DNA of 4,555 bases from a virus (Duplodnaviria; Heunggongvirae; Uroviricota; Caudoviricetes): the IMG/VR virus record IMGVR_UViG_2529292828_000006, positions 1 to 4,555 of that record. One strand, given 5' to 3'. Below, piece by piece: positions 1 through 4,555 of the stretch (position 1 is the first letter of the stretch; each line of letters starts with the position of its first letter). The position numbers and the translations under genes were made by a program. A model generated the notes under the pieces. It searched no databases and was not told the DNA's origin. It saw only the letters and a list, made by a program, of their open reading frames with translations.

Positions 1-1
1 G

Positions 2-400
2 ACGTTTGTTATGGATAACCGGAGCAATATTTTTCCACAACCGGCAGATGTGGAACGCGTGGCGGATTATATCGCCGGTCATACTGACCCGATAACCGGC
101 CTGATTGTCGGACAGCCTGATGGTGTAAATGTCACGGTATTTGCACCAAAGGCAAAGCCGGTAAATCCACGGATTTATATATCGCCGAAGACAGCCGAAC
201 TGAAACAGGCTATTACTCACGCCATTAATACCATGTTTTTTAATGAGGTGACGCCGGGCGGTGCACTTGCCCCCTCCCGTATTATCCGTGCGGTGGCAGG
301 TGTTACCGGTCTGGATGATTTTGAAGTGCGTTTCCCGACAGAGATCCAGCGTTCGGAGAATACGGAACTGTTAACACCGGGGACAATTGAATGGCTGTAA
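2..400 (+). CDS. phage baseplate J-like protein, C-terminal portion (5' end lies outside the window)
   Basis: Frame is open from the first base of the window to TAA at 398-400, so the ATG at 11 is probably internal. Its stop overlaps the ATG of the next gene (391), suggesting translational coupling. Assignment rests on synteny (gene immediately upstream of a DUF2313 tail gene and the tail fibre, as in Mu gp47/gp48 and P2 J/I), not on a recognised motif. Confidence 0.5.
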   Translation, partial: TFVMDNRSNIFPQPADVERVADYIAGHTDPITGLIVGQPDGVNVTVFAPKAKPVNPRIYISPKTAELKQAITHAINTMFFNEVTPGGALAPSRIIRAVAGVTGLDDFEVRFPTEIQRSENTELLTPGTIEWL

Positions 401-933
401 CACCCTGGCAGACGGCCTTTCTGCAATTACTGCCGTCAGGGCTTGCCTGGAATAAAAGCCCCGACAGCAAATTATCTGCGCTGGCGCAGGCCATCAGCGA
501 CGTGATTACCACTGCGGCGGATGATGCGCGGCAAATGCTGCGGGAGCGTTTCCCGTCCACATCCCGCTGGTATCTGGGTGAGTGGGAATCATTTCTGGGG
601 TTGCCGGACTGTACCAGCGAAAACGGCACCCTGTCCGAACGCCGGCGGGCTGCCGCGAATAAAATGCGTATGACCGGCAATCTGAGTCGGCGCTTTTATG
701 AATGGCTGGCTGCGCAGTACGGTTTTACCGTCAGGCTGACGGATTCCACAGAAGGCCAGTGGGTTACGCAGGTCAATATTTACGGTATTAAAAATTATCG
801 CAACGCAACGGTGCTGGATAATGTTCTGACGCCGTTACGTGTTTATGAATCGGGTGCGCTGGAATGTTTACTGGAGAAATATAAACCCGCGCATCAGATT
901 TATAAATTTGTTTACCATGACGGAGATAACTAA
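391..933 (+). CDS. phage tail/baseplate protein, DUF2313 family (Mu gp48 / P2 gpI / e14 YmfQ-like)
   Basis: 180-aa ORF with ATG at 391 preceded by GGGGA at ~379-383. N-terminus MAVTPWQTAFLQLLPSGLAWNK... resembles e14 YmfQ / Mu gp48-type proteins as I recall them. Stop TAA 931-933 overlaps the ATG of the next gene by 1 nt. Confidence 0.7.
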   Translation: MAVTPWQTAFLQLLPSGLAWNKSPDSKLSALAQAISDVITTAADDARQMLRERFPSTSRWYLGEWESFLGLPDCTSENGTLSERRRAAANKMRMTGNLSRRFYEWLAAQYGFTVRLTDSTEGQWVTQVNIYGIKNYRNATVLDNVLTPLRVYESGALECLLEKYKPAHQIYKFVYHDGDN

Positions 934-1361
934 TGTTTTATATTGATAACGACAGCGGCGTAACCGTCATGCCGCCCGTATCCGCCCAGCGTAGTGCTAT
1001 CGTTCGCTGGTTTTCAGAAGGTGACGGGAATAATGCTATCACATGGCCCGGCATGGACTGGTTTAATATTGTGCAGGCGGAGTTATTAAACACGCTGAAA
1101 GAAGCCGGTATTCAACCGGATAAAACAAAATTAAACCAGCTTGCACTGTCCATTAAAGCCATTATGAGCAATAACGCGCTGCTGATAAAAAATAACCTCA
1201 GCGAAATTAAAATTGCCGGGGCATCAGCACAGCGTACAGCACGTGAAAATCTGGATATCTGGGATGCCAGCCTGAACAAAAAAGGCCTCGTTCAGCTAAC
1301 CAGTGCCACTGACAGCCCCAGTGAAACGCTGGCAGCCACCGCAAAATCGGTGATTTGTTGA
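933..1361 (+). CDS. tail fibre protein, N-terminal constant part (142 aa; reading frame ends prematurely, probable pseudogene fragment)
   Basis: ATG at 933 with GGAG at 922-925. C-terminal stretch KKGLVQLTSATDSPSETLAATAKSV matches the conserved N-terminal motif of P2 H / Mu S-type tail fibres. ORF ends at TGA 1359-1361, about 80 bp before the crossover site, instead of reading through it into a variable domain. Confidence 0.7.
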   Translation: MFYIDNDSGVTVMPPVSAQRSAIVRWFSEGDGNNAITWPGMDWFNIVQAELLNTLKEAGIQPDKTKLNQLALSIKAIMSNNALLIKNNLSEIKIAGASAQRTARENLDIWDASLNKKGLVQLTSATDSPSETLAATAKSVIC

Positions 1362-1439
1362 TACCCTTACATAGCCAATCAGCACTCTGGATCTCCCGTT
1401 TAAAAGCGCAAATCATGCCATGCAGGCCGGAAACAGCCA

Positions 1440-1473
1440 TTATCTAAAACCTCGGTTTACAGGAAACGGTAAA
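1440..1473. repeat. left crossover site (gix/pix-like 26-bp core site within a 34-bp inverted repeat) of the invertible segment
   Basis: 1440-1465 TTATCTAAAACCTCGGTTTACAGGAA has the 12-2-12 architecture of Gin/Hin/Pin/Cin sites and matches the Mu gix sequence as I recall it (TTATCCAAAACCTCGGTTTACAGGAA) at 25/26 positions. 1446-1473 is a perfect reverse complement of 4528-4555. Confidence 0.8.
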
Positions 1474-2410
1474 TCAGGCTTCTGGCGCATTGCAGAAAAA
1501 CCAGAACGGTGCAGATATTCCGGGAAAAGATACCTTCACCCAAAATATTGGTGCCTGCCGCGCATATAGCGCATGGGTGGATATTGGTGGCGATAGCCAG
1601 GTCTGGACAACTGCGCAATTTATTTCGTGGCTGGAGAGTCAGGGGGCATTTAACCATCCTTACTGGATGTGCAAAGGCTCATGGGCTTATGCAAATAATA
1701 AGGTCATTACAGATACAGGTTGCGGAAATATTTGTCTTGCAGGTGCTGTTGTGGAAGTTATTGGCACTTGTGGCGCAATGACCATACGCATTACCACACC
1801 GAGTACATCCAGCGGTGAAGGCATCCCTAATGCTCAATTTACTTATATAAACCACGGTGGAGATTATGCTCCTGGCTGGCGACGAGACTACAACACGAAA
1901 AATCAGCAGCCTGCATTTGCTTTAGGGCAAACAGGAAGCACTGTCGGAAATGATAAAGCTGTTGGCTGGAACTGGAATAGCGGGGTCTATAACGCAAACA
2001 TTGCTGGTGCATCGACATTAATCCTCCACTTTAATATGAATGCGGGGAGTTGCCCTGCTGTACAGTTCCGCGTGAATTATAAGAACGGCGGTATTTATTA
2101 TCGTTCAGCGCGTGATGGTTATGGATTTGAGGCTGACTGGTCTGAGTTTTACACCACAACCCGCAAACCCTCGGCGGGAGATGTTGGTGCATACACGCAG
2201 GCAGAATGTAACTCAAGGTTTATTACAGGTATTCGCCTTGGCGGTCTGTCATCTGTTCAGACATGGAATGGCCCCGGCTGGTCTGACAGGTCAGGTTATG
2301 TCGTTACGGGTTCAGTTAATGGGAACCGTGATGAATTAATTGATATAACACAGGCAAGGCCAATTCAGTATTGCATTAATGGAACGTGGTATAACGCGGG
2401 GAGTATTTAA
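1448..2410 (+). CDS. tail fibre C-terminal variable (receptor-binding) domain, cassette in the currently expressed orientation (Mu Sv-like); no convincing independent start
   Basis: Frame is open from 1448, directly after the TAA at 1445-1447, to TAA 2408-2410. The ORF track starts it at TTG 1490, which has no Shine-Dalgarno. It begins NLGLQETVN, encoded by the crossover site, exactly as the opposite cassette does. C-terminus ends ...RPIQYCINGTWYNAGSI, a tail-fibre tip motif. Confidence 0.75.
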   Translation, partial: NLGLQETVNQASGALQKNQNGADIPGKDTFTQNIGACRAYSAWVDIGGDSQVWTTAQFISWLESQGAFNHPYWMCKGSWAYANNKVITDTGCGNICLAGAVVEVIGTCGAMTIRITTPSTSSGEGIPNAQFTYINHGGDYAPGWRRDYNTKNQQPAFALGQTGSTVGNDKAVGWNWNSGVYNANIAGASTLILHFNMNAGSCPAVQFRVNYKNGGIYYRSARDGYGFEADWSEFYTTTRKPSAGDVGAYTQAECNSRFITGIRLGGLSSVQTWNGPGWSDRSGYVVTGSVNGNRDELIDITQARPIQYCINGTWYNAGSI

Positions 2411-2412
2411 TT

Positions 2413-2946
2413 ATGATGCACTTAAAAAATATTACTGCTGGCAACCCTAAAACAAAAGAGCAATACCAGCTAACAAAGCAATTTAACATCAAATGGCTTT
2501 ATACAGAGGATGGGAAAAACTGGTATGAGGAACAAAAGAACTTTCAGCCTGATACGTTGAAAATGGTCTATGACCACAACGACGTTATTATTTGTATTGA
2601 AAAGGATGTTTCAGCAATTAATCCAGAAGGCGCAAGCGTCGTTGAGGTTCCTGATATTACAGCAAATCGCCGGGCTGATATTTCGGGTAAATGGATGTTC
2701 AAAGATGGCGTAGTGATAAAGCGAACTTATACCGAGGAGGAACAGAGGCAGCAGGCAGAGAATGAAAAGCAAAGCCTGTTGCAACTTGTCAGGGATAAAA
2801 CCCAGCTATGGGACTCACAGCTACGGCTGGGTATCATTTCCAACGAGAATAAACAAAAATTAACCGAGTGGATGCTCTATGCGCAGAATGTCGAATCCAC
2901 AGACATCTCCAGCCTGCCAGTAACGTTTCCAGAACAACCAGAATGA
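2413..2946 (+). CDS. tail fibre assembly chaperone (Tfa / Mu U family)
   Basis: 177-aa ORF MMHLKNITAGNPKTKEQYQLTK...[13 protein letters not shown]...[14 protein letters not shown]...SGKWMFKDG, recognisable as Mu U / Tfa-type. ATG at 2413 lies 2 nt after the fibre stop, with GGGGAG at 2397-2402. Sits immediately downstream of its fibre tip, as expected. Confidence 0.85.
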   Translation: MMHLKNITAGNPKTKEQYQLTKQFNIKWLYTEDGKNWYEEQKNFQPDTLKMVYDHNDVIICIEKDVSAINPEGASVVEVPDITANRRADISGKWMFKDGVVIKRTYTEEEQRQQAENEKQSLLQLVRDKTQLWDSQLRLGIISNENKQKLTEWMLYAQNVESTDISSLPVTFPEQPE

Positions 2947-2949
2947 AAC

Positions 2950-2979
2950 AAGGCCCGCTATCGGGCCTTAATTTTTATT
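2950..2979. terminator. hairpin terminator between the convergent tfa genes (probably bidirectional)
   Basis: AAGGCCCG (2950-2957), loop CTAT, CGGGCCTT (2962-2969): an 8-bp GC-rich stem followed by AATTTTTATT on the + strand. The minus strand has a weaker U-rich run (TGTTTCATTC) after the same stem. Confidence 0.5.
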
Positions 2980-3502
2980 CAGGCTTTTGTGGCCATTCAG
3001 GATTTGCCGTATCCACACGGCTGACCAGAACACTGTAGCGTTCCCATGCTTCCAGTCGTGTGCGTTCCTCGTCTGTTGCCATATTCATCCTGACAGCGCG
3101 TTCCAGCTGCTGGATGACTGATTCAGCTTCGGAAAGCAATGCGGCCTTTTGTGATTCGGCTTGTTGTTGCTGTTCGTCTGCCGTATAAATCCGTTTAACT
3201 ACAGCTCCATCCTTAAACATCCACTTTCCTGAATCATCAGCGCGGCGGTTGGCTGTTATATCGGGAACCTCAACGACGCTAAAACCTTCAGGGTTAAGTG
3301 TGGAGGCATCTTTAGTGATGGCGACAATAATATTATTTGCATCGTAAACAATCTTTATTGTGTCTGGCTGAAAGTTTTTCACTTCCTCATACCAGTTTTT
3401 TCCGTCCTCAGTGTAAAGCCAGATAACTCCGTGTTTCTTTGTTAACTCATACTGTTCCAGTGTTTTAGCGTTACCCGCTTTTATGTTCTTTAAGTGCATC
3501 AT
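2975..3502 (-). CDS. tail fibre assembly chaperone, paralogous copy (Mu U' / e14 TfaE-like)
   Basis: 175-aa [51 protein letters not shown]...[25 protein letters not shown]-terminal two-thirds are highly similar to the + strand Tfa; the C-terminal third diverges. ATG at 3500-3502 is 1 nt from the stop (3504-3506) of the upstream fibre domain. Confidence 0.85.
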
Positions 3503-3503
3503 A

Positions 3504-4553
3504 TTAAACGCTCGCTACATTATACCAGGTGCCATTTATATACTTTTGAACGGGTCTGTAATAAACGCCCGCTATATTATCGGCAGAGTTGGACCCTGTA
3601 TCCTGAACATTAATACCAGACAATACATGACCTGAAGGGCACTGGAAATTCCATGTTTGCCAGTTGTTCACTCCATAATATTGCTGTGAACCAAGTCGAA
3701 CATCGTGCACGCCGATTTGTCTGAGGTAAGATGATAACCATCCTCCCCATGCAGTACCATTAATGTCACCATTCGATGCCAAAGTCGCTCCACCGGCAAT
3801 TACCGGACCTGGCGAGAAAAATGATTTGTCGTTCGGGTTAAACTGCCATAAGGCTCCATTGCCGTTATCGCCACACACATGAATACATGGTACCGGGAAT
3901 CCCTGCTGTTCAGTCAGCAAATAACCAAAGCTGACCGCGCCGGGATAGCCCTGTCCATTGCGAATGGACAAGCCCTTAACTATCGGCACGTAATGACCAC
4001 CAGGAGTGGGATTCCAGGCAAACTGCGTCTGAACAAAAGGCGCGGTGGCATTATTTAACTGGTCTGCAAATGCGCCACTTCCATCAGGAATTATTCCCTG
4101 ATGAATATATGCAACCCGCTTATAAAAATCAGCAGATGCGGGTTGAAGCCCAAATGCCAGTTGTCCATTTGAATAGAATAAAAGGACACCGTCGCCGCCC
4201 TGTTTAATACCAGTGTCGTTATCTCCGAGAGTAATGGAATTACCGCCCAGTGCGTTATCTGTACCAAGCGCCAGCCCACCATCAATTTTGGCCCCGTGGC
4301 TGACAGATATAGCACCTGTTCTCAGATTTATAGCGAATGGCCTTAATGGGCCGATATCACCGTTTTCGCCTTGTCCTTCAGCCGTCGGAATGAAATGAAG
4401 AAAATCTTCTGAACGACGGAAAATAAGACCGAAGGCATCATTGAAAATTCGCAGCGCATTCATCGTGCCAATTTTCAGTTCTCCGGTCATTTTATCGCCG
4501 GAACGCTGAACGGCGTTACCAGCCCTGTTTACCGTTTCCTGTAAACCGAGGTT
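3504..4553 (-). CDS. alternative tail fibre C-terminal variable (receptor-binding) domain, silent-orientation cassette (Mu S'v / P2 H-like tip); 5' end runs into the right crossover site and the window edge
   Basis: Minus-strand frame is open from the window end to TAA at 3504-3506. The first ATG is at 4490 (ORF-track start) but has no Shine-Dalgarno. Translation from the window edge reads [16 protein letters not shown]...; downstream [26 protein letters not shown]... and the end ...[19 protein letters not shown] resemble the P2 H / Mu S tip domain as I recall it. Confidence 0.8.
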
Positions 4554-4555
4554 TT
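4528..4555. repeat. right crossover site (inverted copy), truncated by the window end
   Basis: 4536-4555 TTCCTGTAAACCGAGGTTTT is the reverse complement of the left site; the final 6 bp (expected NGATAA) fall beyond the window. The perfect inverted match to 1446-1473 covers 28 bp. Confidence 0.75.

Follow-up and report, generated by a model that had tools for sequence, protein, structure and literature searches.

An array of two alternative tail-fibre tips enclosed by inverted crossover sites invites annotation as a host-range switch, and the question raised by such a locus is whether the arrangement still works as one. We addressed this question for a prophage region that constitutes the entire 4555-bp draft contig of ETEC strain 2780750 (the window in what follows; Table 1).

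Identity of the invertible segment

By its sequence, the region is the known invertible 'G segment' host-range switch of an SfMu/Mu-type (Mu-like) prophage in E. coli. The DNA of the window is 92-94% identical to Mu, D108 and SfMu over the matching parts; the Mu annotation beneath the match comprises S, U, U', S' and gin, and relatives that match the window at 98-100% run on into gin, com and mom. The tail and baseplate genes follow the Mu-type order (gp47, gp48, S), as in Muvirus-type (SfMu-like) phages, with the first 400 nt collinear with the gp47-like genes of three relatives (L001, L004 and L006) and with exact copies of the 180-aa gp48-like protein on 69 contigs. The switch is thus the textbook Mu G inversion and not a new system. 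An earlier note on this DNA had placed it in the Din family and called the mechanism known and of low novelty. We agree on both counts, Mu G inversion being well described, and refine the family assignment to the Gin/gix G segment.

In the intact Mu G segment, a pair of 26-bp gix sites encloses the 3.1 kb of DNA that the serine invertase Gin inverts, with the aid of Fis at an enhancer that lies inside gin (in its 5' part in Mu). The constant part of the fibre gene (Sc) is transcribed from outside the segment, and its reading frame continues through the Sc-side site into one tip or the other. The chosen tip is co-expressed with the chaperone gene beside it, and the result is a change of host range.

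Table 1. Features of the 4555-bp window
Feature	Position	Strand	Remarks
gp47-like baseplate J gene, 3' part	1..400	+	Pfam Baseplate_J, E 2e-14; open at contig start
Mu gp48-like baseplate wedge protein, 180 aa	391..933	+	Pfam Phage_Mu_Gp48, E 4e-28
Constant N-terminal fibre part (Sc), codons 1-140	933..1353	+	protein 99% to L006 fibre residues 1-140; 96% to Mu S
Breakpoint microhomology, GGTGA (Sc) / GGTCA (gin, reverse complement)	1349..1353	.	join between 1352 and 1354
gin invertase stub, codons 1-11 (VLIGYVRVSTN)	1354..1385	-	Ser9 codon included; GTG start 1385-1383
gin upstream / RBS region, 54 nt	1386..1439	-	identical to gixR-gin spacer of L004, L006
Left 26-bp crossover site, TTATCTAAAACCTCGGTTTACAGGAA	1440..1465	+	complete; gin-side type (TTATCT...)
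Variable fibre tip 1, Sv-type	1466/1490-2410	+	homologous to SfMu gp49 C-terminus
Tfa chaperone of tip 1	2413..2946	+	Pfam Caudo_TAP, E about 1e-35 to 2e-35; 97% to Mu U' (BLASTP)
Hairpin terminator, bidirectional	2950..2969	both strands	between the two convergent cassettes; scored as terminator each way
Tfa chaperone of tip 2	2975..3502	-	Pfam Caudo_TAP, E 1e-36; BLASTP 90% to Mu U, 94% to SfMu_51
Variable fibre tip 2, 349 codons	3504..4555	-	open across right crossover site to contig end
Right crossover site	4536..4555	-	inner 20 of 26 nt; contig end removes last 6 nt

Contents and boundaries of the segment

Inside the segment, two fibre C-terminal parts lie in opposite orientations, each with its own Tfa/U chaperone behind it, and the proposal that the two cassettes are mirrored about a central terminator is borne out by the open reading frames, the Pfam matches and the hairpin between them (-21.9 kcal/mol, z = -4.9; an equally stable fold in 0 of 200 shuffles). 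Tip 1 (314 codons) is 100% identical to residues 175-488 of the fibre of L006 and has a weak Pfam match to gp37_C. Tip 2 agrees at 99.7% with the L004 fibre (517 aa) over residues 169-517; relative to the tips of Mu and SfMu it is a mosaic, close to SfMu_52 in the last 68 aa only. The two halves of the segment repeat each other in inverted orientation but have diverged, with identities of 71% over 266 nt and 75% over 75 nt. No RNA family reached the Rfam gathering score in the window, and a promoter scan gave four promoter-like sites, none of them useful, against 7.6 in shuffled sequence.

The segment is bounded, as had been claimed, by an inverted pair of 26-bp gix-type sites with conserved half-sites and the same central dinucleotide; the left member is complete at the proposed position, and its partner is seen over 20 nt. 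The left site matches a gix-derived pattern, which had no match in 200 shuffles, and equals Mu gix at 25 of 26 positions. Mu gix sites begin TTATCC; the T at 1445 in the site described here creates a TAA (1445-1447) in the fibre frame. The visible 20 nt of the right site, central dinucleotide included, are a perfect inverted match to the left site, and in relatives these 20 nt are completed either by GGATAA (Sc side) or by AGATAA (gin side). The perfect inverted repeat extends over 28 nt (1446-1473 and 4528-4555), or over 50 nt at 80% identity when extended.

Near-identical relatives hold the segment (99.7-100% identical) both ways, with L005, L006 and L008 in one orientation and L004, L010 and L011 in the other, and it is also oppositely oriented in L001 and L002. 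In the first two groups the constant part is fused to one tip or the other, giving a fibre of 488 or 517 aa. The invertase of the relatives is a 197-aa protein with Resolvase and HTH_7 domains, and the L004 enzyme can be aligned with Mu Gin (PDB 3UJ3) over the full length with few substitutions (E 9e-125). The G segment of L007 is flanked by invertase genes on both sides. Several copies of the module are common in E. coli genomes, with a median of two and a maximum of nine places per genome.

A foreign left flank that probably uncouples the switch

It is in the left flank that the window departs from its relatives. Up to position 1346 it agrees with L006 and L011 at 100%, and across the 1353-nt left arm the sole mismatch to either is T1347 on the plus strand, which is G in every relative, changes Ala to Ser and lies 6 nt from the junction. 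The constant part had been annotated at 933-1361, and as far as 1353 the open reading frame is indeed fibre sequence; the remainder is foreign and consists of three codons (V-I-C) followed by a stop at 1359-1361. From 1354 to 1439 the window is the reverse complement of the invertase-side flank, fused to Sc at 1353/1354. Positions 1349-1478/1480 match the reversed gixR-gin flank and recombinase 5' end of L001, L002, L004 and L006 at 97.7-98.5%, and for the flank of L001 and L004 over 1349-1480 the range is 97.7-99.7%, the two BLAST segments overlapping at 1349-1353, and Mu has an annotated RBS at the position equivalent to 1386-1439. The left crossover site is likewise the gin-side variant instead of the Sc-side one. 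Outside positions 1347-1445, the window equals L006.

This replacement has consequences for both genes. The 86 nt of foreign sequence stand where relatives have 75 nt of Sc, which shifts the frame by +2. Of gin, only 32-33 nt are present, on the left rather than on the right of the segment, and the stub reads leftward into antisense Sc as a chimeric open reading frame of 29 codons; where one would expect a gene for a serine invertase (about 190 aa, with Resolvase and HTH_7) beside a site, codons 1-11 are thus the only invertase sequence in the window. The constant part reads in frame across the crossover site into a tip in L006 (488 aa) and L004 (517 aa) and fails to do so here. The earlier note had expected inversion to swap the tip fused to 933-1361, but neither tip can be joined to this open reading frame because of the stop at 1359-1361, the frame shift and the in-frame TAA of the left site. 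To judge from these reading frames, tip 1 is without a usable N-terminus in this contig, the genes for tail fibre and invertase both appear to be broken, and the switch has probably ceased to work.

That an intact phase-variable switch alternately fuses each tip to 933-1361 is therefore scarcely credible. The cassettes and the sites are intact and close relatives operate in this way, but the two stops, the +2 shift and the invertase-side origin of 1354-1439 refute such a switch for the sequence as given, and it is conceivable only if the contig is chimeric. Inverted repeats alone are insufficient grounds for annotation, and 'phase-variable' would be wrong for strain 2780750; a host-range switch that looks perfect can be uncoupled from its constant part and its invertase.

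Origin of the junction

We suggest, with a probability of about 0.6, that the window is the Mu/SfMu-type G segment of ETEC 2780750 whose left edge was rearranged by a real inversion of about 3.28 kb, which disabled the switch. The simplest origin would be one illegitimate inversion in a parent resembling L010 and L011, with one end 75 nt beyond the Sc-side site and the other 87 nt beyond the gin-side site. In the contig, Sc is cut after codon 140 and meets the reversed gin-side flank at 5 nt of microhomology; the missing 75 nt of Sc, together with gin from codon 12 onwards (without the catalytic Ser9), would have been left to the right of 4555. Inverting positions 6867-10150 of L004 once reproduces the contig exactly. 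The same event predicts a reciprocal junction to the right of 4555 (CATCGCAATTTTGACCAGAAYAC, CATCGCAATTTTGACCAGAATAC), where the 75-nt Sc 3' end, reverse-complemented, should come directly after GGTTTTGGATAA. With gin split and neither tip fusable to Sc, the segment would be a disabled relic; another Din invertase acting in trans might still flip it, but with no effect on fibre expression.

Direct traces of this event outside the contig were sought in several collections. No instance of the Sc::gin junction turned up in 5426 complete E. coli genomes, in GTDB with one genome per species, or in JGI metagenome contigs, and the exact 142-aa and 247-aa products occur on this contig only. Absence from these three sets leads us to reject the junction as a conserved alternative architecture. 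The reciprocal junction CATCGCAATTTTGACCAGAAYAC had no match in the searched collections, which exclude the source assembly, and an exact look-up of the predicted 214-aa chimeric Gin, including versions starting at a contig start, found none, the start position of that protein being an assumption. Both negatives carry little weight. The action of Gin on pseudo-gix sequences at both breakpoints was also rejected, as these match only 10-11 of 24 half-site positions (about the 93rd percentile of background).

Two observations on the breakpoint itself may be recorded here. In other fibre genes, similarity to Sc breaks off at the base where the junction lies, and a partial Sc protein (P0014, 139 aa) from another, unrelated strain of the same study (P0299917.10) ends at the same codon.

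The inversion must be weighed against an assembly or library chimera, in which the strain would have a normal SfMu-like prophage with a working G switch and the Sc::gin join at 1353/1354 would be confined to the contig. The window is a short, whole contig from a 2013-era short-read draft, the junction is a singleton in the searched collections, and only one of the two junctions expected of an inversion is visible, since the contig ends inside the right site. The end of the contig in fact coincides with the edge of the perfect inverted repeat, a break typically seen when a culture harbours both orientations of G. The one base that differs from relatives lies 6 nt from the join, as in a poorly supported consensus, and the end of P0014, from the same pipeline and another strain, at the same codon may hint at something systematic at this position. 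We nevertheless consider a chimera unlikely. The source assembly was made from 100-nt reads with Celera, an overlap assembler (PMC5469772). The parental sequences share GGT-A only at the join, an overlap of at most 5 nt that is far under the thresholds of such an assembler, so that several spanning reads would have been needed, and the junction-linked T1347, absent from all relatives, is in the consensus although normal Sc reads with G at 1347, if abundant, should have outvoted it; on both grounds the junction is probably real. Furthermore, the join links points 3.28 kb apart head to head, which circularisation and short fold-back artefacts do not produce. Celera is also established to trim single chimeric reads.

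Other real rearrangements could place the same sequences side by side, such as a deletion between two head-to-head Mu-like/P2-like prophages sharing the G segment, or an inverted duplication of the gin flank that replaced the Sc 3' end and kept an intact gin to the right of 4555. Raw material for such events exists in the multiple module copies that are frequent in E. coli genomes (median 2, up to 9), in the P2-like phage P88, which has the same segment with an invertase, and in the invertase genes on either side of the L007 segment. Both scenarios, however, require more events than a single inversion, and the 100% identity of both window arms to one prophage, L006, argues against two diverged parents; taken together, we regard them as improbable. 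Very improbable is that second-order inversions around the G segment recur and silence fibre and invertase for good, for which template switching through the large inverted repeats or an action of Gin on cryptic sites are possible routes; the only hints of recurrence are the end of P0014 and the shared limit of Sc homology described above, and against it stand the poor resemblance of the breakpoints to gix and the lack of a second junction in the searched collections.

If the junction is real, as the single inversion would have it, the window illustrates one way in which prophages decay, namely inversion at microhomology across a whole invertible segment, and offers a clean case of a G segment silenced in nature. 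If it is chimeric, an error in a public assembly has been flagged.

Comparison with known inversion systems

The G segment of Mu (Gin, gixL/gixR, S/U, S'/U') has the same gene order and the same convergent layout of two cassettes. The similarity to Mu extends to the chaperones (97% to U' and 90% to U), to Sc (96% to residues 1-140 of Mu S) and to gix (25 of 26 positions, the gin-side site having T for C at one position), whereas both tips differ from Sv and S', with merely short stretches at 37-73%. Unlike in Mu, which shows no such fusion, Sc and gin are truncated and fused head to head in the contig.

The best phage match is Shigella phage SfMu (KP010268), which covers 83% of the window at a DNA identity of 93.8%. 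The C-terminus of SfMu_49 and tip 1 agree at 93.6%, the two gin-side sites do not differ, and SfMu encodes a 197-aa Gin with com and mom downstream. In contrast to the contig, the fibre gene of SfMu runs uninterrupted (488 aa) and its gin is intact.

Din-family invertases can substitute for one another and require an enhancer to which Fis binds. The same Din-family mechanism operates in the C segment of P1 and P7 (Cin/cix), the P region of e14 (Pin/pix) and the H segment of Salmonella (Hin/hix), but these systems have other constant parts, flanks and invertase genes. The P7 C segment is 93% identical in DNA to the window over positions 1484-3548, whereas the Hin/hix segment contains no fibre tips but a promoter and the gene of the invertase. 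As regards the other end of the window, the contig start was considered as the internal deletion junction of L005 and rejected; the L005 junction lies about 112 nt further left.

Identity of the segment

The earlier note had described two mirrored tip and chaperone cassettes around a central terminator, and the ORFs, the Caudo_TAP matches and the hairpin are all present (see table). The hairpin, which lies between both halves of the segment, has a terminator score on both strands and a folding energy of -21.9 kcal/mol (z = -4.9); the halves themselves form inverted repeats that have diverged (71% over 266 nt and 75% over 75 nt). Inverted gix-type sites do bound the segment, as had been proposed. 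The left one fits the gix-type pattern (0 matches in 200 shuffles), and the inverted repeat is perfect over 28 nt (1446-1473 / 4528-4555) and reaches 50 nt at 80% when extended.

Features of the window (gene calls from the ORF map and Pfam)
Feature	Position	Strand	Remarks
Baseplate J C-terminus	1-400		
Mu gp48-like protein	391-933		
Fibre N-terminal ORF	933-1361		Phage_fiber_2 match at ORF end
gin codons 1-11	1354-1385	-	GTG start at 1385-1383
Spacer, gin-side gix site to gin start codon	1386-1439		54 nt, reverse complement
Left crossover site	1440-1465		26 bp, TTATCTAAAACCTCGGTTTACAGGAA
Fibre tip 1	1490-2410		gp37_C match, weak
Chaperone of tip 1	2413-2946		Caudo_TAP
Hairpin	2950-2969		
Second chaperone	2975-3502	-	Caudo_TAP, opposite strand
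Second fibre tip (tip 2)	3504-4490	-	No Pfam match; frame open up to contig end
Right crossover site	4536-4555		Inverted partner; 20 nt, then contig end

The best phage match to the window is SfMu (93.8% over 83% of the window), followed by D108, P88 and Mu (92-93% over 1349-4555), and beneath the match the Mu annotation lists S, U, U', S' and gin. The constant N-terminal fibre part (Sc) is 96% identical to residues 1-140 of Mu S, the chaperone of tip 1 is 97% identical to Mu U' and the second chaperone 90% identical to Mu U, while tip 1 shares 93.6% identity with the C-terminus of SfMu gp49. Tip 2 is a mosaic: it is close to SfMu gp52 only over its last 68 residues (97% identical, against 63% for residues 22-94), and its middle part is unlike the tips of Mu and of SfMu. 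In intact relatives the segment is followed by a 197-aa Resolvase + HTH_7 protein and then by com and mom; this invertase can be aligned end to end with Mu Gin (PDB 3UJ3; E 9e-125), from which it differs by few substitutions. The segment is a Mu-type G segment itself, not a mere look-alike. Recognition of the Din family from sequence alone was correct: by mechanism and by family this is the G inversion of phage Mu, a known system that is rediscovered here.

Near-identical loci were found by exact look-up of the second chaperone, and in six of them (L004-L006, L008, L010, L011) the segment is 99.7-100% identical to that of the window. The constant part runs into tip 1 in L005, L006 and L008 (a fibre of 488 aa) and into tip 2 in L004, L010 and L011 (a fibre of 517 aa), and L001 differs from L002 in orientation in the same manner. 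The same DNA is thus found either way round between its flanks, which is what Gin-mediated inversion should produce.

Loss of coupling at the Sc::gin junction

An exact match to the 142-aa product of the fibre N-terminal ORF is confined to a single record, AQDV01000015.1 (contig of 4555 bp, assembly GCA_000355555.2), so the window is a complete draft contig; the source record gives the organism as Escherichia coli 2780750. It is an ETEC strain isolated in Bangladesh, whose draft was built by the Celera Assembler from 100-bp Illumina HiSeq reads (PMC5469772).

From 1 to 1346, and again from 1440 to 4555 apart from base 1445, the window matches L006 at 100%, which leaves 1347-1445 as the sole differing stretch. 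Alignments identify 1354-1439 as the reverse complement of the flank normally outside the other, gin-side site, not as the Sc 3' end. The minus strand accordingly reads VLIGYVRVSTN from gin and then 18 codons of antisense Sc, and the join falls at 1352-1354 inside a microhomology of GGTGA (Sc) and GGTCA (gin reverse complement). The left site is itself the gin-side variant. Sites of this phage group read TTATCC on the Sc side and TTATCT on the gin side, unlike Mu, which has TTATCC at both. In the fibre frame at the differing base (window 1445-1447), C gives CAA (Gln) and T gives the stop TAA, so the silent tip adjoining gin is closed by the site itself.

Replacement of 75 nt by 86 nt shifts the frame by +2, and the Sc ORF stops three codons past the join (1359-1361). 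Stop, frame shift and the TAA at 1445-1447 are three obstacles independent of one another, so neither tip can be fused to 933-1361 in either orientation of the segment, and the proposed alternation of tips on that ORF is blocked. The ORF had been taken as the constant part, which is right for the fibre sequence before the join but not from 1354 onward. The functional claim therefore does not hold for this particular copy which, as it stands, is predicted to be unable to make fibre from either tip, and which by its sequence has no intact invertase gene on the stub side. Din-family invertases are interchangeable, so the segment might still be flipped in trans by another member; even so, fibre expression would be unchanged. 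That the contig ends right where the perfect repeat does would be in keeping with a culture in which both orientations occur. The remaining interest, which is small, lies in the aberrant junction.

Origin of the junction

On L004, the window maps to 5514-6866 and then, as reverse complement, to 6948-10154. One inversion of 6867-10150 (~3.28 kb), in a parent of the L010/L011 orientation, would yield the contig exactly; besides the G segment, the inverted stretch would hold 75 nt from Sc and 87 nt from the gin side. Since the contig shows just one junction, we infer the remainder: right of 4555 the model predicts GGATAA, the Sc 3' end in reverse complement and gin from codon 12, in that order. 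Such a gin would lack its first 11 codons, including Ser9, the catalytic nucleophile of Gin. The Ser9 position carries Ala in the 3UJ3 chain. Gin acting at cryptic sites finds no support, as the breakpoints fit gix half-sites at just 10-11 of 24 positions.

We put the probability of a real single inversion at about 0.6. A chimeric junction is less likely, although the source is a short-read draft and the junction stands alone, with no second copy in 5426 complete E. coli genomes, GTDB species representatives or JGI metagenome contigs. Consistent with a chimera, a partial Sc protein of another strain from the same study and assembler (P0014 of E. coli P0299917.10) terminates at the same codon, and in other E. 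coli fibre genes homology to Sc breaks off at exactly the junction base. Against it, the parental sequences have only about 5 nt in common at the join, so an overlap assembler would need truly spanning reads. In addition, T1347, 6 nt from the join, is the only left-arm difference from L006 and L011 and occurs in no relative; abundant normal Sc reads should have outvoted it, which counts for a real rearrangement. Real rearrangements of other kinds are less probable still. Neither the reciprocal junction nor the predicted chimeric Gin was found in the collections searched, which do not include the source assembly.

P0014 is a 139-aa 'partial' protein whose last codon is the one at the window junction (region 1347-1353), and BLAST homology stops at the junction base in many E. 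coli fibre genes (query positions 67-128). This shared stop point may be just the end of the conserved fibre-repeat motif. Within window 1337-1356, the breakpoint lies just 3' of a small hairpin native to Sc (CACCG-N6-CGGTG), and the junction-linked G1347T perfects a second small palindrome, AAATC-GGT-GATTT, across the join. This signature could stem from template switching, but also from chance.

Variation among related loci

L007 (6294-10705 of GCA_044025295.1 DAZZXO010000014.1) carries invertase genes on both sides of the same G segment, at 6294-6887 (-) and 10118-10705 (+); its two crossover sites are both gin-side (TTATCT), and P2-like tail genes come next (GpU, tape measure, tube, sheath). 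Either a Mu-like and a P2/P88-like prophage have exchanged DNA gix by gix, or short reads were wrongly joined through the 3.1-kb segment that the two share. L005 (11092-11816 of ERZ19637012, a 198-kb contig) has a large internal deletion in a near-identical Mu-like prophage, where a DUF2730 gene runs straight into the final 133 codons of baseplate J; this deletion junction is not the contig start of the window, lying ~112 nt left of position 1. In L001 (FDAARGOS_1059, 4480-4510) the Sc-side site reads TTATCCAAAACGTCGG..., with G replacing the last C of the half-site. SfMu matches the exact core pattern at its gin-side site only, so its Sc-side site must differ in the core too. These altered Sc-side sites may lower inversion frequency.
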